Shown piece by piece: positions 3 to 8,699 of a stretch of 26,585 nt of DNA. The translations under genes and the position numbers were made by a program. Origin of the DNA: Chthoniobacter flavus (GTDB lineage: Bacteria > Verrucomicrobiota > Verrucomicrobiia > Chthoniobacterales > DYNR01); NCBI GenBank assembly GCA_020720945.1, contig DYNR01000001.1:4268-30852 (forward strand). The letters run 5' to 3'. Positions within the stretch are counted from its first letter, which is position 1, and each line of letters starts with the position of its first letter. The notes under the pieces were generated by a model. That model saw only the letters and a list, made by a program, of their open reading frames with translations, had not been told where the DNA came from and did not search any database.

Positions 3-275
<273 letters not shown>

Positions 276-369
276 GCTCACTGGATGCTCGCAATGCAGG
301 AAAGAGCAAGGCCAGAAAATTCAGCAAACGCCGCAAACAGTCACAATTACCACCCTGACCCCTATTCCT

Positions 370-2790
370 ATGGACCAATCCCAGCTCAACTGGCTCACCA
401 ATTTCATCTGGAACATCGCCGACGACTGCCTGCGCGATGTCTTTGTCCGGGGCAAATACCGCGATGTGATCCTGCCGATGACCGTCCTTCGCCGCCTCGA
501 TGCCGTGCTGGAGCCGACCAAGGCCGCCGTGCTCGAAATGAAGTCCGCGCTCGACAAGGAAAAAATCACGAATCAAGACGATGCCCTCCGCGCCGCCTCC
601 GGTCAGGCTTTTTACAATACCTCCCCCTTCCTCCTGCGCGATCTGAAATCCCGCAAAACCCAGCAAACGCTCAAAGACGACTTCATCGCCTACCTCGACG
701 GCTTCTCGCCAAATGTGCAGGACATCATCAAAAACTTCGAATTCCGCAACCAGATCGGCAAGCTCGTGGAGTCCGACGGCCTCGGCCAACTCATCGAAAA
801 GTTCCTCAGCAAGGACATCAACCTCAGCCCGCATCCCGTGGGCGAGTTGCCCGGTCTGGACAACCACAGCATGGGCACCGTCTTCGAGGACCTCGTTCGC
901 ATGTTCAATGAGGACAACAACGAGGAAGCCGGGCAGCACTGGACACCACGCGATGCCGTGAAGCTCATGGCGAGCCTCATGTTCCTCCCCGTGGCAGACA
1001 AGATCGAATCCGGCACCTACCTGCTTTACGACTGCGCCTGCGGCACCGGCGGAATGTTGACCGTTGCCGACGAAACACTCCAGCAAATCGCCACTGCGCA
1101 CGGGAAGCAGGTGTCCACTTACCTTTACGGGCAGGAAATCAATGCCGAGACCTACGCCATCTGCAAAGCCGACCTCCTCCTGAAAGGCGATGGCGAAGCG
1201 GCGGACAACATCATCGGAGGCCCCGCCTTCTCCACGCTGTCAAACGATGCCTTCCGCTCCCGCAGCTTCGACTTCATGCTCGCCAATCCGCCCTACGGCA
1301 AAAGCTGGAAGAGCGACCTGGAACGACTCAGCGGCGACGGCGGCAAAAAGGGCGTCAAAGACCCGCGCTTCGTCATCGAACACGCTGGCGACCCCGAGTT
1401 TTCCCTCATCACCCGCAGCAGTGATGGGCAGATGCTTTTCCTCGCCAACATGCTCAGCAAGATGAAGCATGACACGCCACTCGGCAGCCGCATCGCGGAG
1501 ATTCACAACGGCTCCTCCCTCTTCACCGGCGACGCCGGGCAGGGCGAGAGCAACATCCGCCGCTGGGTCATCGAAAACGACTGGCTGGAAGCCATCGTCG
1601 CCCTGCCCCTGAATATGTTCTACAACACCGGCATCGCCACCTACATCTGGGTGCTCACAAACCGGAAAGCGGAACACCGCAAAGGCAAAGTCCAGCTCAT
1701 CGACGCCACCAACTGGTTCCGCCCCCTGCGCAAAAACATGGGCAAAAAAAACTGCGAACTCGCCCCCGAAGACATCCAGCGCATCTGCGATACCTTCCTC
1801 GCCTTCGAGGAAACGCCACAGTCGAAAATCTTCCCCAATGCCGCCTTCGGTTATTGGAAAGTAAAAGTCGAACGCCCGCTCCGCCTCCACAGCCAGCTCA
1901 CCCGCCCGCACATCGAAACCCTGCGCTTCACCTCGGGCGATGAAGACATCCGCGCCGCCCTCTATGCCGAGCTAGGCGAGGCCGTTTTTGAGAAATGGGC
2001 CGCCACGCTCCCCGCTTTGGAAAAACTCTTGTCCGATTGGTCGGATCCGTCCGAACCGACTGATCCCTCCGAAGACGAAGAGGTAGCACCCAAGAAAACC
2101 CTCTCCGACAAAAAGAAAAAGAAGCTCCTCAGCGAAGCCACTTGGCGGCGCGATGCCATGCTGCTCGATACCGCCCACCAACTCCGCAAAGCTCTCGGCG
2201 AAGACCTCTTCACCGACCACAATGTCTTTCTGGAAAAAGTCGAAGCCACGCTGAAAAAGCTCAACCTCAAACCCAGCGCCTCCGACCTCAAAACCATCAT
2301 CGCCGCCGTCAGTTGGCGCGTCGAGGACGCCCCGCCCGTCATCAAAAAAATCCACAAGCCGGGCAAAACCAAAGCCGACCCACTACACGGCCTCTACGAA
2401 ATGAATCCTTGCAATAAAAGCGCTTCACGGGTAGCGGGCATGGACACAGATCCCAATCCCATCTGCGAAAATCTGCGAAATCTGCGGATAAAAAATCCGG
2501 GGGCCGTAGTCGAGTTTGAACCCGACCCCGAACTCCGCGACTACGAGCAAATCCCCCTGCTGGAGGAGGGCGGCATCGAAGCCTTCCTCCGCCGCGAAGT
2601 CCTGCCCTACACGCCCGATGCCTGGATCGTCGAGTCCGACACCAAGATCGGCTACGAAGTCAGCTTCACCCGCCACTTCTACCAACCGCGCCAGCTCCGC
2701 ACCCTCGCCCAGATCAGCGCCGACATCCTCGCCTTGGAGCAGGAGACCGAAGGCCTGCTCCACGAAATCACGAAAGGAGCCAGCGCGTGA
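370..2790 (+). CDS. hsdM: Type I R-M N6-adenine methyltransferase subunit M (806 aa)
   Basis: Likely start is ATG 370 (MDQSQLNWLTNFIWNIADD), not 37. SAM motif YDCACGTGGML, catalytic ANPPYG, and YGQEIN, DGQMLFL and LPLNMFYNTGIATYIW segments. Confidence 0.95.
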   Translation: MDQSQLNWLTNFIWNIADDCLRDVFVRGKYRDVILPMTVLRRLDAVLEPTKAAVLEMKSALDKEKITNQDDALRAASGQAFYNTSPFLLRDLKSRKTQQTLKDDFIAYLDGFSPNVQDIIKNFEFRNQIGKLVESDGLGQLIEKFLSKDINLSPHPVGELPGLDNHSMGTVFEDLVRMFNEDNNEEAGQHWTPRDAVKLMASLMFLPVADKIESGTYLLYDCACGTGGMLTVADETLQQIATAHGKQVSTYLYGQEINAETYAICKADLLLKGDGEAADNIIGGPAFSTLSNDAFRSRSFDFMLANPPYGKSWKSDLERLSGDGGKKGVKDPRFVIEHAGDPEFSLITRSSDGQMLFLANMLSKMKHDTPLGSRIAEIHNGSSLFTGDAGQGESNIRRWVIENDWLEAIVALPLNMFYNTGIATYIWVLTNRKAEHRKGKVQLIDATNWFRPLRKNMGKKNCELAPEDIQRICDTFLAFEETPQSKIFPNAAFGYWKVKVERPLRLHSQLTRPHIETLRFTSGDEDIRAALYAELGEAVFEKWAATLPALEKLLSDWSDPSEPTDPSEDEEVAPKKTLSDKKKKKLLSEATWRRDAMLLDTAHQLRKALGEDLFTDHNVFLEKVEATLKKLNLKPSASDLKTIIAAVSWRVEDAPPVIKKIHKPGKTKADPLHGLYEMNPCNKSASRVAGMDTDPNPICENLRNLRIKNPGAVVEFEPDPELRDYEQIPLLEEGGIEAFLRREVLPYTPDAWIVESDTKIGYEVSFTRHFYQPRQLRTLAQISADILALEQETEGLLHEITKGASA
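2444..2489. repeat. ATCTGCG-triplet element (full right arm plus short left-arm remnant) in frame inside hsdM
   Basis: ACACAGAT (2444-2451), a 9-nt spacer, then ATCTGCGAAA-ATCTGCGAA-ATCTGCGGAT (2461-2489). Same 10+9+10 layout as the arm in hsdS. Confidence 0.8.
2761..2790 (+). repeat. Direct repeat copy 1 (hsdM 3' end, with Shine-Dalgarno and GTGA overlap)
   Basis: CACGAAATCACGAAAGGAGCCAGCGCGTGA, 25/30 identical to 3998-4027. Confidence 0.75.
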
Positions 2791-3908
2791 AAAAGAAGAA
2801 GCCCAAAATAGTGTCACCAGCGGTGACACAAATAGTCTCACCATTGGCGAGACAATTGCCAAAGGCAGCAATGGCTCCTGCCTTCACCGAAGTGCTCCAG
2901 CTGATTCAAGCCGCCAAACAAAGGGCGTATCAGGCCGTCAACACCGAGCTTGTTACGCTTTATTGGCAGGTCGGCGAATACATCAGTCGCAAGCTGGAAT
3001 CCTCCGAGTGGGGTGATAAAGTGGTGAACGATCTTGCCAGATACCTCGCGCGAACTCAGCCTGGGCTGATAGGTTTCACCCGCCGAAACCTGTTCCGAAT
3101 GCGCCAGTTTTATGATGCCTACCGCAACACTGAAATTGTGTCAGCAGTGCTGACACAATTGCCGTGGACCCATCACCTCATGATCATTGGAAGTTGCAAG
3201 CGCCCGGAGGAACGCGAGTTCTACATCCGCATGGCAACCAGTGAAGGGTGGCGCAGCAGAGAACTCCAGAGACAAATCCGATGCTGCCTGTTCGAGCGTG
3301 CCGTCATGAATCCGCCAAAAGTCGCAGCAGCACTGCGACAATTGCAGCCAGAGGTCACCAACATCTTCAAAGACATTTACACCCTCGAATTCCTCGGCCT
3401 CCCCGCCGACCACTCGGAGGCCGATCTGCACGGCGCACTGCTGCGCAATCTGGGCCGCTTCATCACCGAACTGGGGCGGGACTTCTGCTTTGTCGGCTCC
3501 CAATACCCGGTGCAGGTCGGCGGGCAAGACTTCGCTCTCGACCTGTTGTTTTTTCACCGCACCATGAACTGCCTCGTCGCCATCGAACTGAAGATTCGCG
3601 AGTTCCGCCCGGAGGATCTCGGCAAGCTCAACTTCTACCTCGAAGCCCTCGACCGCGACTACCGCAAGCCCCACGAAAACCCCTCCGTCGGCCTCCTCCT
3701 CTGCGCCACCAAAGATACCGAAGTCGTCGAGTATTGCCTCAGCCGCAGCCTCTCCCTGGCCATGATCGCCGAGTATGAAACCCTGCTGCCGGACAAGGAA
3801 CTACTGAAGGCCAAGCTGCACGAGTTCTACCAACTCTGCGCCCCACCGGAGGATGATATGGCAGAGCCAAAGCCATCAAAGCCCGCTCGAAGGAGGGAAA
3901 AGCCATGA
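2787..3908 (+). CDS. DUF1016/YhcG family PD-(D/E)XK nuclease-domain protein (373 aa)
   Basis: Motifs YQAVNTELVTLYWQVG, GFTRRNLFRMRQFY, LPWTHH, FKDIYTLEFLGL, DLLFFHR..VAIELK, LGKLNFYL and ENPSVGLLLC. GTG start overlaps the hsdM stop, with GAAAGGAG upstream. Confidence 0.92.
   Translation: MKKKKPKIVSPAVTQIVSPLARQLPKAAMAPAFTEVLQLIQAAKQRAYQAVNTELVTLYWQVGEYISRKLESSEWGDKVVNDLARYLARTQPGLIGFTRRNLFRMRQFYDAYRNTEIVSAVLTQLPWTHHLMIIGSCKRPEEREFYIRMATSEGWRSRELQRQIRCCLFERAVMNPPKVAAALRQLQPEVTNIFKDIYTLEFLGLPADHSEADLHGALLRNLGRFITELGRDFCFVGSQYPVQVGGQDFALDLLFFHRTMNCLVAIELKIREFRPEDLGKLNFYLEALDRDYRKPHENPSVGLLLCATKDTEVVEYCLSRSLSLAMIAEYETLLPDKELLKAKLHEFYQLCAPPEDDMAEPKPSKPARRREKP
2807..2857. repeat. Two tandem hairpins (24-nt period) in the 5' end of the DUF1016 gene
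   Basis: GTGTCACC-AGC-GGTGACAC and GTCTCACC-ATT-GGCGAGAC, encoding IVSPAVTQ and IVSPLARQL. Confidence 0.85.
3134..3160. repeat. Perfect 13-bp inverted repeat inside the DUF1016 gene
   Basis: AATTGTGTCAGCA-G-TGCTGACACAATT, encoding IVSAVLTQL just before PWTHH. Confidence 0.95.
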
Positions 3909-4027
3909 TCCACCGAATTGTTGACTCAGTGCGTCTAAATTCGATTTGGAACGCAGTGCGTGCCAAATTGAATCGGCGATGGCCCTCAGAAGCCTCGCAC
4001 GACATCATGAAAGGAGCCACGGCATGA
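3905..4027 (+). CDS. 40-aa bridging ORF, not in the supplied track (MIHRIVDSVRLNSIWNAVRAKLNRRWPSEASHDIMKGATA)
   Basis: AGGAGG at 3891-3896. ATGA overlaps with both the DUF1016 stop and the hsdS start. It contains two hairpin units, and its C-terminus resembles the HsdM C-terminus. Confidence 0.5.
   Translation: MIHRIVDSVRLNSIWNAVRAKLNRRWPSEASHDIMKGATA
3916..3969. repeat. Two tandem 27-nt hairpin units downstream of the DUF1016 gene
   Basis: 3943-3969 is GATTTGGAACGCA-G-TGCGTGCCAAATT (11/13 paired plus one G.T). 3916-3942 is a degenerate copy (about 8/13). Confidence 0.7.
3998..4027 (+). repeat. Direct repeat copy 2 (directly before and overlapping the hsdS start)
   Basis: CACGACATCATGAAAGGAGCCACGGCATGA, 25/30 identical to 2761-2790. 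Confidence 0.75.
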
Positions 4028-5502
4028 TCGAGGGACTTAAACCCTATGCGGAATACAAGGAGTCGGGCTCGAAGTGGCTAGGTGCTGTTCCAGCGAAATG
4101 GGAAGTGCGGAATCTCCGCACGCTGATCTCAAAGCGAGCCGAGCGAGACCGTCCCGACCTTCCGCTGCTTTCGGTGGCACGGGAGAAAGGCGTCTTCGTT
4201 CGCTCAATGACCGATGCGGACGAGAACCACAATGTTATCCCCGAGGACTTGACCAACTACAAGGTCGCCCGCGCTGGCAATCTCGTGATCAACAAGATGA
4301 AGGCGTGGCAGGGATCAATGGGCATTGCGCCTTGCGATGGTATTGTCAGCCCAGCGTATTTCGTCTTCGACTTCCGCATCGGCAATCACGGGTTCGGCCA
4401 GCGTCTCCTTCGCAGCAAACCGTATGTAGCACATTTTGCGCAGGCATCGGACGGTGTGCGAGTCGGTCAGTGGGATTTGTCCATTCCCGGAATGCGGCAG
4501 ATTCCCGTGCTCGTGCCCAGCGACGACGAACAAGCGGCGATCGTGCGGTTTCTGGATCATGCGAACCGGAAGATTGACGGATTCATCCGTGCCAAGCGGA
4601 AGCTGATTGGTTTGCTGAACGAGCAGAAGCAGGCCATCATCCACCGTGCCGTCACCCGTGGAGTGGATCATCCACAGATTTCGCAGATTTCCGCAGATGA
4701 AAACCAAAAAAATCTGCGCCCATCTGCGCAATCTGCGGATAACAACCTCAAACCTTCCGGCATCCCTTGGCTCGGCGACATCCCGAAGCATTGGGAGACT
4801 ATTACAGTGGGAGCGGCAACCTCCATGATTCAGACGGGGCCATTCGGAAGTCAGATTCACTCGAATGAGTATATCCGTGGAGGCACGCCGATCATCAATC
4901 CGTCGCATATGAAGGATGGCTCTATCGTAGCCGACATGGATGTCGCTGTTGGCGAAAGCAAGCTGCGAGAGCTTGCTCGGCATCGGATGTTGGTTGGCGA
5001 TATTGTCGTGGCGAGACGGGGAGAACTTGGTCGATGCGCTTTAGTTACCCAAAATGAAGAGGGATGGCTATGCGGCACAGGCAGTTTGCTTGTTCGGATT
5101 AAGCGCGATGTCTTTAATCCCGGTTATTTCCAGGAGGTGTTCTCTTCGTCAGGCGTGTGTGATTTACTTAGTTTGGCATCAGTTGGCTCGACGATGGACA
5201 ATCTCAATGCGGGCATGGTCGGTCGGTTAAGGTTTCCACTTCCGAGTGTTGAGGAGCAGACAGAGATACTAAAGTTTATTGGTGTTGAGAGGTCGAAAAA
5301 CACCGCCGCCATCGCCCGCACGGAGCGAGAAATCGCGCTGATGCAGGAATACCGGACGCGCCTGACGGCGGATGTAGTGACGGGCAAGCTGGATGTGCGC
5401 GAAGCCGCCGCCCAGCTCCCCGCCCTCGCCCCCGATTCCACCCCCGAACCCGCCAGCGAGGATTTGCCGGAAGAAACTGAACCCGAGGAGGATATGGAAT
5501 GA
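4024..5502 (+). CDS. hsdS: Type I R-M specificity subunit S (492 aa, two target recognition domains, TRDs)
   Basis: Start ATG 4024 after GAAAGGAG. Repeated conserved segments KESGSKWLGAVPAKWE and KPSGIPWLGDIPKHWE, plus P..DEQAAIVRFLD and LPSVEEQ..I. Ends with ADVVTGKLDVR. Confidence 0.93.
   Translation: MIEGLKPYAEYKESGSKWLGAVPAKWEVRNLRTLISKRAERDRPDLPLLSVAREKGVFVRSMTDADENHNVIPEDLTNYKVARAGNLVINKMKAWQGSMGIAPCDGIVSPAYFVFDFRIGNHGFGQRLLRSKPYVAHFAQASDGVRVGQWDLSIPGMRQIPVLVPSDDEQAAIVRFLDHANRKIDGFIRAKRKLIGLLNEQKQAIIHRAVTRGVDHPQISQISADENQKNLRPSAQSADNNLKPSGIPWLGDIPKHWETITVGAATSMIQTGPFGSQIHSNEYIRGGTPIINPSHMKDGSIVADMDVAVGESKLRELARHRMLVGDIVVARRGELGRCALVTQNEEGWLCGTGSLLVRIKRDVFNPGYFQEVFSSSGVCDLLSLASVGSTMDNLNAGMVGRLRFPLPSVEEQTEILKFIGVERSKNTAAIARTEREIALMQEYRTRLTADVVTGKLDVREAAAQLPALAPDSTPEPASEDLPEETEPEEDME
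4670..4740. repeat. 71-nt imperfect palindrome in frame inside hsdS
   Basis: 29-nt arms at 4670-4698 and 4712-4740 (24/29 complementary) with a 13-nt A-rich loop. Each arm is three ATCTGCG-like units. Confidence 0.9.
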
Positions 5503-6281
5503 TGCTCGAACTCCTCATAGCCACCCGGTTTGAAAAGGTGATGGGCTCTGGTCGCACCCAGCCTTGCCTGCTGGTGTGTGAAAACGAGGCAGGCGAAGAG
5601 GTCGAGGTGGTGGCCAAACTGCGCGGCCATCCGCAGATCATGCCGGGCGGCTTGCTGGCTGAGGCCGTGTCGTCTTTGCTCGCGCTTGATCTCGATCTGC
5701 CCGTGCAGACACCGTATCGAGTTGAGATTGAGAAGGCGTTTGCCGATGCGTTGCCGGACGCCGCCTTGCGGACAGTCATCCAGAAAAGCGAGGGGCTGAA
5801 CTTTGGCTCTGCAAAGTGGGCACCCGGCTACACGATCTGGCCGAGGGACAAAACGCCGTCGCGGGATATGAAGCAGAGCCTAACGGAGATTTTCGCCTTT
5901 GACGGGTTGATTCAAAATCCCGACCGTCGTCAAGCCAATCCGAACTGTGCTTTTCTTGGCACCGACCTCCGGATTTTCGACCACGAGTCCGCTTTTTCGC
6001 ACTTTATGTCCATCCTGCCGGTTGCTCCTTGGGATACAGGCGGGCTGGCTTTTCTAAAGGACCACATTTTTTTTCAATCACTTCGCGGCGGGAATCTTGC
6101 GCTGGATCGATTTCAGGGAGCACTGGAAGCCGTGGACGAATCCCGGCTGGACGCGTATATTGAAGCTGTTCCGAAGGAATGGAATGGTCAAACAACCACG
6201 GGGCCAAAGATCAAAACGCATCTGATGGAGTGCATCGCCAATTTTCAACACATTCGATTACAAATGGAGACACTGTTATGA
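5499..6281 (+). CDS. HipA-like / PI3K-PI4K-fold protein kinase (260 aa)
   Basis: Gly-rich MGSGRTQP, VVAK lysine, LLAE glutamate, catalytic loop NPDRRQANPN and IFDHESAF. ATGA overlaps at both ends. Confidence 0.8.
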   Translation: MMLELLIATRFEKVMGSGRTQPCLLVCENEAGEEVEVVAKLRGHPQIMPGGLLAEAVSSLLALDLDLPVQTPYRVEIEKAFADALPDAALRTVIQKSEGLNFGSAKWAPGYTIWPRDKTPSRDMKQSLTEIFAFDGLIQNPDRRQANPNCAFLGTDLRIFDHESAFSHFMSILPVAPWDTGGLAFLKDHIFFQSLRGGNLALDRFQGALEAVDESRLDAYIEAVPKEWNGQTTTGPKIKTHLMECIANFQHIRLQMETLL

Positions 6282-7135
6282 AAAAACATCCCTACACCTA
6301 CACCATCCTCCGCTATGTGCATGACACGAGCACGGGGGAATTTGCCAATGTGGGCATCGTTCTCTCTTCCCCGGAGGCTCACTACGCGACCGCCATTCTG
6401 TGCCCGAAATACACACGCCTCTCGAAGATGTTTCCGGGCTTCGATGGAGAGCATTTCCGCACGGTAATTCGTCACCTCCAATTGCGCCTCGATGAGATTG
6501 CCTGTTGCGTGCAACAGGAGCTGGAGCTGGGACAGAAGCCCGTGAATGCCCAAGAGATGGCATTCGCGGTGATTGCTCCCGACGATAGTTCTTTCCAGTG
6601 GTCGCCGATGGGAAGCGGAATAGCTACCGATCTAGCCGCCACGGCGGAGTCCATCTACGAGCGCATGGTCGAACGGTATGACGATCCAAAGAAGAATTTC
6701 AGTCGCTCCGACGAGGCCGTGTGGAAGACCTTCAAGAAGGGCTTTGAGGAGAAGCAGATTCTCTCGCGTTTCGGGACGAAGATTATTGCGGTGAAAGACG
6801 ACGAGGTTGAGTTCAGCCACGCATGGCAGAACCAGCAATGGCACTGCATGGAAACCTTGTCCTTCGATCTGATGCAGCCGCAGAGCATCAAAGATAAGGC
6901 TCACTCGTGGCTTGGCCGGATGACCAGCGTGAAGGATTCGCCGGACAAGTTCCGGGTCTATTTCCTCGTGGGAGAGCCGCAACTTGAAGGGAGCAAACGC
7001 GCCTTCGAGCAAGCCCTCAATGTGCTTCACAAAACACCCGTCGAACATGAGATCGTTCGCGAGAATGAAGCAGAGCACTTCGCGGAAGAGGTGGCAAAAA
7101 AAATTGCGGCGCATGACAAACAACTCGGAAAATAA
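6278..7135 (+). CDS. DUF3037-like protein (285 aa)
   Basis: N-terminal YTYTILRYVHDTSTGEFANVGIVL signature. Start ATG 6278 overlaps the kinase stop. Confidence 0.75.
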   Translation: MKKHPYTYTILRYVHDTSTGEFANVGIVLSSPEAHYATAILCPKYTRLSKMFPGFDGEHFRTVIRHLQLRLDEIACCVQQELELGQKPVNAQEMAFAVIAPDDSSFQWSPMGSGIATDLAATAESIYERMVERYDDPKKNFSRSDEAVWKTFKKGFEEKQILSRFGTKIIAVKDDEVEFSHAWQNQQWHCMETLSFDLMQPQSIKDKAHSWLGRMTSVKDSPDKFRVYFLVGEPQLEGSKRAFEQALNVLHKTPVEHEIVRENEAEHFAEEVAKKIAAHDKQLGK

Positions 7136-7153
7136 ACTAAACTAATAAAAAAT

Positions 7154-8699
7154 ATGCCATCCGACACCAGCGAAAAAGGACTCGAAACCCTGATCATGCG
7201 CCACCTGACCGGGACGGATGGCTTGGTTTCTGACCCAGCGGGAGTCGTCGCCGAGGATGCGCCCGCCAAGGCTGGAAGTCGTTGGTTCGCGGGAAGCCCC
7301 CAAAGTTATGACCGCGAGTTTGCGGTGGATACGGCGCAACTCTTCGCCTTTCTCATGACGACCCAACCGGAGGAATGGGCGAAGTTGGGCATCGCAAATT
7401 ACAAAGACGAGCACGGTATGGCGCGGCAGAAGTTCCTCGCCCGATTGCAGGGGGAAATCACGCGGCGGGGAACGATTGATGTGTTGCGCAAAGGCATCAA
7501 ACACGGGCCGTTGAGCTTCGACCTTTTCTATGGCACGCCGTCGCCGGAGAATGCGAAGGCGGTGGAGCGACACGCGAAAAACCGTTTCAGCATCACGCGG
7601 CAACTCCATTTCAGTCGGGAAAACAAACGCTCGCTGGACTTGTGCGCCTTCATCAACGGACTGCCGCTCATCACCTTTGAACTAAAGAACAGCTTGACCA
7701 AGCAGACGGTCGAGGATGCCATCGAGCAATACAAACGGGACCGCGATCCCCGCGAGACGCTGTTCGCATTTGGCCGCTGTGTCGTTCACTTCGCAGTGGA
7801 CGACCACGAAGTGGCAATGTGCACCGCCCTCAAAGGCAAGGGCGGCACGGCGAAGGACTCATGGTTTCTCCCGTTTAACCAAGGCTGGAACGACGGGGCG
7901 GGCAATCCTCAGCAACGAGACCGACCCAAATAAACTCCACACGCTCAAGGGCGATCTGGACAAGGTGCAGGTTTATTCTCCCGAGCAAATCGACGCGCTG
8001 GTTGAGCTGTATCTTGGAGGAGCCGACCGCGATAAACTCGACCCGATCCTCGACGCCTGCGTGGCTGTTTACATTAACGACCTCGACGAAGACGGGCAGG
8101 TGGATTTCAAAGGGAAAGCGAAGGCATTTACCCGCACCTATGACTTCCTCGCCACGATCCTGCCTTATGGCATCCAAGACTGGGAAAAACTCTCGATCTT
8201 CCTGAACTTCCTCATCCCCAAGCTACCCGCACCGAAGGAGGAAGACCTCGCCAAAGGCATCCTCGAAGCCATTGATATGGACAGCTACCGCGCCGAAAAA
8301 AAAGCGACGATGGCAATCGCGCTGCCTGATGAACCTGGCGTGATTGACCCGGTTCCCGTGTCAGGCGGAGGTCGCAAGCCGGAGCCAGAAATGGACAAAC
8401 TCTCGAACATCGTGAACGAGTTTAACCAGCATTACGCGGGCGGCTACGCGGACCCCGAACGAACGCTCGGACGGATCCACGGCGAGATCCCACAAAAGGT
8501 TTCCGAAGATCAGGCTTACAAAAACGCCAAGCAGAACTCGGACCGGCAGAACGCGAAAATCGAGCATGACAAGGCACTCAAACGAGTAATCACTGCGATG
8601 TTCAAGGACGATGCCCAACTCTTCAAGCAGTTTCAGGACAACGAATCCTTCCGCCATTGGCTGACGGAAACGGTTTTTGGCATGACCTACGAGGAGTAG
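7154..8699 (+). pseudogene. hsdR: Type I R-M restriction subunit R, internally deleted and frameshifted
   Basis: The N-part has SEKGLE, RFSITRQLHFS, DLCAFINGLPLITFELKN and FLPFNQGWNDGAGNP. At about 7905 it jumps to a C-terminal HsdR segment in another frame (ILSNETDPNKLH...FKQFQDNESFRHWL). No Walker A, DEAH or helicase motifs lie between them. Confidence 0.88.

Follow-up and report, generated by a model that had tools for sequence, protein, structure and literature searches.

The window analysed here, a stretch of 26,585 nt of Chthoniobacter flavus DNA (contig DYNR01000001.1, assembly GCA_020720945.1), carries a DUF1016/YhcG gene for a predicted nuclease between hsdM and hsdS of a type I restriction-modification (R-M) operon. 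This work concerns the short in-frame palindromes, hereafter units, of the 1.2-kb cassette formed by that gene and a small relay open reading frame (ORF) behind it. The cassette carries six of them: one pair in the leader of the gene, one pair (sites A and B) in N-domain linkers and one pair in the relay ORF. Site A belongs to a palindrome that recurs at the same codon position in DUF1016 genes of distant phyla, and we tentatively regard the units as DNA hairpin modules prone to recombination. The features of the locus are the following:

37..2790, plus strand: hsdM, type I R-M methylase of 917 aa (Pfam N6_Mtase and HsdM_N)
2761..2790, plus strand: left copy of the duplicated junction, with the hsdM 3' end, the Shine-Dalgarno sequence AAAGGAG and the GTGA stop/start overlap (direct repeat D2; alignment with the empty site of the related genome G039)
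2787..3908, plus strand: DUF1016/YhcG gene, DUF1016_N plus a predicted YhcG_C nuclease domain of the PD-(D/E)XK type (Pfam)
2807..2833, plus strand: unit 1, in the MKKK leader, IVSPAVTQ (perfect 8-bp core, fold, covariance model)
2831..2857, plus strand: unit 2, in the leader, IVSPLARQL (11/13 paired, covariance model)
3134..3160, plus strand: site A, the family-wide palindrome immediately 5' of PWTH, IVSAVLTQL (13/13 paired)
3317..3345, plus strand: site B, the sixth unit, KVAAALRQL, with a 7-bp stem, about 186-187 nt past site A (covariance model)
3905..4027, plus strand: relay ORF of 40 codons (conserved in the related loci L057 and L058)
3916..3942, plus strand: unit 4, decayed, 8/13 paired (right arm identical to that of a perfect palindrome at the same place in L057)
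3939..3973, plus strand: unit 5, IWNAVRAKL, 15/17 paired (fold, L057 ortholog)
3998..4027, plus strand: duplicated junction, right copy, comprising the Shine-Dalgarno sequence and an ATGA overlap with the hsdS start (direct repeat, G039 alignment)
4024..5502, plus strand: hsdS, specificity subunit (Pfam Methylase_S), which adjoins hsdM directly in G039

The DUF1016 gene and its product

The product of the DUF1016 gene matched DUF1016_N (E-value = 1.2e-44) and YhcG_C (E-value = 3.1e-53), both past the Pfam cut-off, and is therefore a member of the family. Its likely start is the GTG at 2787, which has a ribosome-binding site and overlaps the hsdM stop (the alternative is the ATG at 2871); this start is conserved in related loci, as GTG in L057 and as ATG in L058 and G449, and Lys codons always follow it. 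The AlphaFold2 model of the protein has a predicted local distance difference test (pLDDT) score of 80, and residues 5-29 of the leader are disordered, so that with a start at 2787 units 1 and 2 lie in a translated, disordered leader. The nine residues encoded by site A form a short helix or linker in the model (pLDDT about 69-72). The nuclease domain of the family is NucS/Hjc-like (Kosinski, 2005), as our fold search also indicated: the C-domain resembles the NucS/EndoMS and Bax1 nucleases, and the confident matches (E-value at most 0.001) were PD-(D/E)XK nucleases only, with no DNA-binding fold among them. A search of the PDB by sequence returned chance matches only.

The six palindromic units

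A sequence-only reading had described five hairpins, centred at 2820, 2844, 3147, 3929 and 3956, and its pairing counts were reproduced by folding and by palindrome counts. Pairing is complete at 3134-3160 (13/13) and reaches 11/13 at 2831-2857 and at 3943-3969, the latter growing to 15/17 over 3939-3973. The unit at 2807-2833 is paired at 10 of 13 positions overall with a perfect 8-bp core at 2811-2829, and that at 3916-3942 keeps 8/13 pairs only. In the genome background (2.69 Mb), at least 11/13 pairs round a 1-nt centre occur at 67 sites, or 0.025 per kb, and the cassette holds three such sites against about 0.03 expected. Perfect palindromes with 13-bp arms number six genome-wide, four of which sit in the genome's four DUF1016 genes, all with different sequences. 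The two outside DUF1016 genes (G000 C65:9-37 and C450:769-795) lie one at a contig end and one in a coding region. Folding gave z-scores of -7.2 for unit 1 and -5.4 for unit 5. A covariance model built on 24 homologous internal units, the window's own included, matched the unit at 2844 (E-value = 2e-8) and that at 2820 (E-value = 3e-6), and disclosed the sixth unit at 3317-3345 (E-value = 9e-4), these E-values being rough; units 4 and 5 gave no match to the model. In L057 the places of units 4 and 5 are taken by perfect palindromes of 13 and 15 bp, and because of this ortholog we regard unit 4 as a decayed copy.

Thus four of the five hairpins first described are far beyond chance and the one centred at 3929 is decayed here and perfect in L057, although the count of five was incomplete, as site B had been missed. 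The common reading register holds for all six units, the centre being base 1 of unit codon 5, and the internal copy does stand just before PWTH. Two units on either side of site A had also been reported; the pair termed upstream falls inside the ORF if GTG 2787 is the start, and the pair termed downstream belongs to the separate relay ORF. The stems differ among the six units and each unit is self-complementary, which places the constraint within each unit, as pairing or as arm-to-arm copying, and argues against one shared protein-binding sequence or operator. Unit 5 resembles site A of a second type of DUF1016 gene (type 2) in L058, and the flanking units of the window look like site-A alleles of other relatives.

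A coding palindrome common to DUF1016/YhcG genes

The coding palindrome occurs in uncultured bacteria of soil and water, in E. coli K-12 and in phage contigs, at the same codon position in distant phyla, as an in-frame inverted repeat with covarying arms before a (P/S)W(T/S)H motif; site A of the window has all these traits. In an alignment of 24 homologs 90.6% of the cells were paired and 11 of the 12 pairs had changed on both sides, against 31-46% pairing when the partner was slid, and in 111 unique units, drawn from phage contigs as well as from genomes and metagenomes, 1158 of 1443 cells formed Watson-Crick pairs, the sampled family members being related to one another. Hairpins of at least 9 bp were present at site A in 102 of 157 loci, and a hairpin was present at the position of site B in 25 of 158 homologous loci (control zones, 3-8% in both cases). 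The encoded peptide varies (IVSAVLTQL, KVSPLVTQL, IVQAVPAQL and others), which points to a constraint on DNA or RNA. Codon choice inside the unit is extreme: in 88 genes, unit codon 4 is NCA in 76% and NCG in 20% and is never NCY, compared with about 55% NCY elsewhere in the same genes. The third base of unit codon 7 is A in 99%, Gln is encoded 79 times by CAA and never by CAG, and Ile 30 times by ATT and never by ATC. Covariation and codon choice together support a selection or constraint that would act on nucleic-acid pairing and not on the peptide, as the sequence-only reading had proposed: orthologs covary, and extra copies occur elsewhere. Complementarity moreover holds up to the base adjoining the 1-nt centre, too close for a hairpin loop to form, a feature more readily accounted for by templated symmetrisation or duplex symmetry than by RNA stability.

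Further observations concern the family at large. Two other DUF1016 paralogs of the genome (L004 = G000 C128 and L003 = G000 C17) stand in defence contexts, one directly after cas3 (helicase C-terminus and HD domain) and one beside a DUF4391 gene, and their palindromes lie inside long linker insertions, two per gene. The metagenome contig Ga0160439_1017722 (L104) ends within the site-A palindrome, suggesting that units break short-read assemblies. Palindromes like unit 4 in L195 and L202, with no DUF1016 gene nearby, had E-values at chance level over 400 genomes and were not used.

Insertion at the hsdM/hsdS junction

In the related genome G039 hsdS directly follows hsdM, and this junction represents the empty site. 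In the window, 1.2 kb are inserted exactly at the overlap of the hsdM stop and the hsdS start, flanked by a duplication of 22-30 nt that comprises the hsdM end and the Shine-Dalgarno sequence (D2 copies 83% identical). The DUF1016 ORF starts where the displaced hsdS start had been, with a GTGA overlap, and the relay ORF restores the other end: its ATG and the DUF1016 stop overlap in one ATGA, its TGA and the hsdS ATG in another, and its last 10 residues copy the hsdM C-terminus. The 40 codons and the overlapping start and stop are found in L057 and L058 as well, where the other frames are closed. The relay ORF, which holds units 4 and 5, thereby preserves the translational coupling of the operon.

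Different cassettes occupy the same junction in relatives: type 1 in the window and in L057 (77% protein identity to the window), type 1 plus type 2 in L058, type 2 alone in G449 and nothing in G039, type 2 being 31% identical to type 1. Between the window and G449, identity is 80-100% from the end of hsdM through the MKKK codons to one leader unit (unit 2, 26/30) and then falls to about 35%; the leader hairpin is the last element common to the two different gene bodies. The window has two leader units and G449 one, the extra 24-nt unit being unit 1. We conclude that in this lineage the units also delimit the cassette in the R-M operon. Among 16 other R-M loci with DUF1016, one 13-nt direct repeat was found around the gene and none at the R-M junction.

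A second metagenome-assembled genome (MAG) of the same species (L021), which comes from a sulfur-cave sample and is labelled Verrucomicrobium spinosum, shows 99.8% identity over window positions 2678-6905 and contains no swapped units. Of the eight differences, seven lie within the final 110 nt of hsdM (2685-2775), just 5' of the cassette, where the L021 contig starts; strain heterogeneity is one possible cause and a recombination edge at the junction another.

Elsewhere in the window, the region downstream of hsdS (5499-8699) contains a HipA_2 kinase gene, a DUF3037 gene, a 259-aa HSDR_N ORF and then an ORF with no Pfam match; a full-length hsdR is not visible there, and the R-M system may therefore be devoid of a restriction subunit. 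Within hsdM, the in-frame stretch 2380-2504 measures 125 nt compared with 44 nt in the G039 ortholog and includes, at 2459-2495, a short tandem motif like ATCTGCGAA in three copies. The motif has dozens of 30-nt matches in related genomes and one in the hsdS of the window (4670-4699, minus strand), and looks like a dispersed short repeat able to sit in coding sequence.

yhcG alleles of E. coli and recombination signals among homologs

Alleles of yhcG were compared in 5,426 complete E. coli genomes. Three units stand in tandem inside the K-12 gene and a perfect one follows 15 nt past the stop codon; the first unit of K-12 (L190 8128-8156) has a single A.C mismatch and is perfect in five other alleles (H11, H20, H22, H24 and H26). 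The query positions at which partial yhcG matches stop (40, 123, 137/138 and 144) are edges of units. In one class of alleles foreign DNA replaces the sequence from exactly the end of a unit, another has IS1 within a unit, and a further one has lost two units through an 80-nt deletion. Intact mosaic alleles are 45-70% identical across the units, compared with 96-100% in the flanks. The downstream unit d occurs as two perfectly compensated alleles, in 2842 and 244 genomes, counted with 51-nt megablast queries that do not cleanly separate uncompensated intermediates. The arms of internal unit b in one strain match those of an allele of downstream unit d in others, and this sharing of arms between internal and flanking units makes unit-to-unit copying plausible.

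Among 88 homologs, a moving split of the alignment gave a correlation between left and right distance matrices of 0.41-0.47 at columns 264-345, where site A occupies 278-304, and of 0.75-0.83 across the C-domain. The identity between L094 and L119 drops from 97% to 84% right after site A, and the gene of the window is nearer to L057 before site A and nearer to L058 after site B. Two further scans were set aside. A triplet recombination scan was dominated by an artefact, the L104 contig ending inside the palindrome, and pairwise max-chi-square breakpoints fell in large number in the variable C-terminal tail, with three of the six internal ones near sites A or B, a result that is not significant.

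Interpretation of the units

The explanation we favour, with a probability of roughly 45%, is that the units are recombination-prone DNA hairpin modules, local copies of the in-frame 27-nt (9-codon) palindrome of the family. They would be sites prone to form hairpins or cruciforms, whose arms may be kept matched by template switching together with selection, and they could act as preferred points of copy-choice and recombination. The outcome would be extra copies, changes in unit number, mosaic alleles and the exchange of gene bodies behind a common leader. This comes near the suggestion of the sequence-only reading that the hairpins are mobility sites, of which one part is borne out (an inserted cassette, an empty site and homology ending at the leader hairpin) and another is not: no recombinase gene was found nearby by Pfam among the window ORFs, the units are not dispersed in the manner of repetitive extragenic palindromic (REP) elements and features of integron attC sites are absent.

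The missing recombinase is one of several points that weigh against the favoured explanation. Few family members have flanking copies, which occur in 4 of 154 leaders and in 8 of 152 downstream regions, and the flanking units are not nearest to the site A of their own locus in a rank test, where only L107 came first. The dip in the moving split is broad, overlaps a faster-evolving sub-domain at site A and is absent at site B. In 42 Lys-variant homologs, codons 1, 8 and 9 of site A are fixed as AAA (never AAG), CAA (never CAG) and TTG/TTA; the conservation of a self-complementary CAATTG box thus exceeds what the hairpin would require, and the A.A positions of these variants cannot pair. A 13-bp cruciform needs strong underwinding, and hot-spot behaviour is expected of any quasi-palindrome and is no proof of a selected role.

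If DNA hairpin modules are what they are, the units mark where DUF1016 genes break, recombine and enter R-M operons, and an element in the reading frame of a very widespread, uncharacterised nuclease family of defence islands bends the protein to keep a DNA symmetry. It would potentially be the first functional handle on DUF1016/COG4804, and the locus could show how an accessory gene is inserted between hsdM and hsdS with no loss of translational coupling. The palindrome is present in yhcG of E. coli K-12 and is therefore directly testable by standard genetics. The NucS/Hjc-like domain also makes it conceivable, by analogy, that the nuclease acts on branched or cruciform DNA. A bolder version, to which we give little credence, makes units and nuclease one co-evolving module, in which the units extrude, the gene's own enzyme, similar to Holliday-junction resolvases, binds or cuts them, and the ensuing breaks, with copy-choice repair, carry DUF1016 cassettes into defence operons and also rewrite the units. 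The reading frame would then conceal a self-encoded site of recombination and diversification.

Several of the same observations would follow, with no function at all, from an ancestral quasi-palindrome perpetuated by template-switch correction, whose deletion is forbidden by selection on the protein and whose extra copies are duplication debris. Template switching has been argued to conserve perfect inverted repeats (Lavi et al., 2018, PMC5941160), and arms that are strictly Watson-Crick and complementary up to the centre, the compensated double change of unit d within one species and the decay of flanking copies (unit 4 here and the units of L058) all agree with it. However, such a by-product leaves unexplained why the palindrome is retained in one family and at one codon position over distant phyla and phage contigs, when only two other perfect ones occur in 2.69 Mb, why the orthologous flanking units are perfect in L057 and a leader unit is kept between two otherwise unrelated cassettes, and why unpaired letters are fixed too; we consider it unlikely. 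Even then, the units would offer a striking example from nature of how template switching can shape a protein family. A role in the mRNA, where hairpins would tune translation or stability through pausing in linkers, through blocked independent initiation that forces coupling or through protection from exonucleases, we hold to be improbable. All six units lie on the sense strand of translated ORFs in one register and consist of rare codons, a leader unit starts about 25 nt past the start codon, the relay ORF keeps its overlapping stop and start codons, and G.T mismatches on the sense strand outnumber A.C ones (83 vs 33), as such a role would have it. Yet mismatches occur at synonymous sites only, the excess comes from three positions and is confounded with coding, and pair 8 has no wobble in 111 units. 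Structured RNAs usually tolerate wobbles and bulges, whereas the units are perfect, and the pairs beside the 1-nt centre, which cannot form in RNA, are kept all the same. Rfam returned a single chance-level snoRNA match (E-value = 4.1), and no unit has a sense-strand terminator, the weak antisense matches at units 1 and 2 being within shuffle expectation.

The sequence-only reading had also proposed stored alternative cassettes that can replace a 9-residue segment of the nuclease. In this view flanking units would be donors that rewrite the linker segment by copy-choice or gene conversion and provide a defence protein with fast in-frame variation. The arms shared between internal unit b and unit d in E. 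coli render such copying plausible, strong divergence within the intact alleles there is confined to the unit region, the flanking units of the window resemble site-A alleles of relatives, and unit number varies between the window and G449. Nevertheless, in this organism the near-identical MAG has no swapped unit; most family members lack flanking copies, a small stem alphabet leads one to expect matches between units, the segment is a short helix or linker modelled at modest confidence and with no known role, and neither a reverse transcriptase nor a recombinase is found nearby, which together make this mini-diversification quite improbable. Least credible to us are operators, duplex palindromes bound by a dimeric protein (the DUF1016 N-domain or a controller-type regulator) that would regulate the nuclease and the R-M operon. 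Dyad symmetry is perfect through the centre, the pair of neighbouring sites where the gene begins is reminiscent of the tandem C-box operators known for R-M controller proteins, and the conserved CAATTG box is not explained by pairing; but one protein cannot prefer different bases at each site, and symmetry at the variable stem positions needs another cause. A promoter scan of 2600-4200 revealed no promoter-like site, and the confident fold matches of the nuclease include no DNA-binding fold.

Comparison with known systems

A prior description of the DUF1016 coding palindrome was not found in the literature searched; it is apparently undescribed, in agreement with the sequence-only reading, which had known of no named system. 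The location of DUF1016 genes, together with RhuM and Fic/DOC, between type I R-M core genes is a published and statistically enriched arrangement (PMC9881135), in which the insertion junction, the relay ORF and the hairpins are not described. Three known types of element were compared with the units. An intrinsic terminator would have a GC-rich stem followed by a T-run, and this was found on the sense strand at no unit. The operators of R-M controller (C) proteins would go with a promoter and a helix-turn-helix gene, and no such gene adjoins the units. Diversity-generating retroelements have pairs of template and variable repeats, and here the repeats are 27-nt palindromes and no reverse transcriptase domain occurs in the window ORFs.

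Integron attC sites likewise have a conserved structure with variable sequence, and they are imperfect palindromes bounding cassettes, just as homology between different cassettes here ends at a hairpin. They differ in measuring 57-141 nt, in having R and L boxes and extrahelical bases, in their location at the cassette 3' end and in the need for IntI beside attI. The units are 27 nt long, perfect or nearly so, devoid of R''-L''/L'-R' boxes (RYYYAAC/GTTRRRY) and mainly inside the gene, and no integrase was found by Pfam in most of the larger ORFs across the window, so that the combination of IntI and attI is missing. REP elements and bacterial interspersed mosaic elements (BIMEs), with their REP-associated tyrosine transposase (RAYT), are also short palindromes, often paired, between operon genes, but REPs exist as tens to hundreds of dispersed copies per genome, and a RAYT gene is not seen here. 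The covariance model, which covers units of the site-A type and does not recognise the stems of units 4 and 5, matched only three DUF1016 loci in 2.69 Mb, and the palindrome scan found no such family elsewhere; as the matches are confined to DUF1016 genes, the units are not REP-like.

Perfect inverted repeats in translated genes, preserving both protein and structure, have been reported from Nematomorpha mitochondria (PMC6649704). Those are up to 284 bp long, are spread over many genes of a single organelle genome and encode conserved protein regions in both arms, whereas the DUF1016 unit is short and belongs to one prokaryotic gene family. The units are also similar to the quasi-palindrome hot spots of template switching and to conserved perfect inverted repeats (Ripley model; Lavi et al., 2018, PMC5941160). 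In these short inverted repeats, correction makes the arms perfect; they show compensated double changes and are hot spots of templated mutation and deletion. They are scattered and mostly non-coding, whereas the DUF1016 module is in frame, 27 nt long and fixed at the same codon family-wide across phyla, with further copies in the leader, the second linker and the relay ORF.

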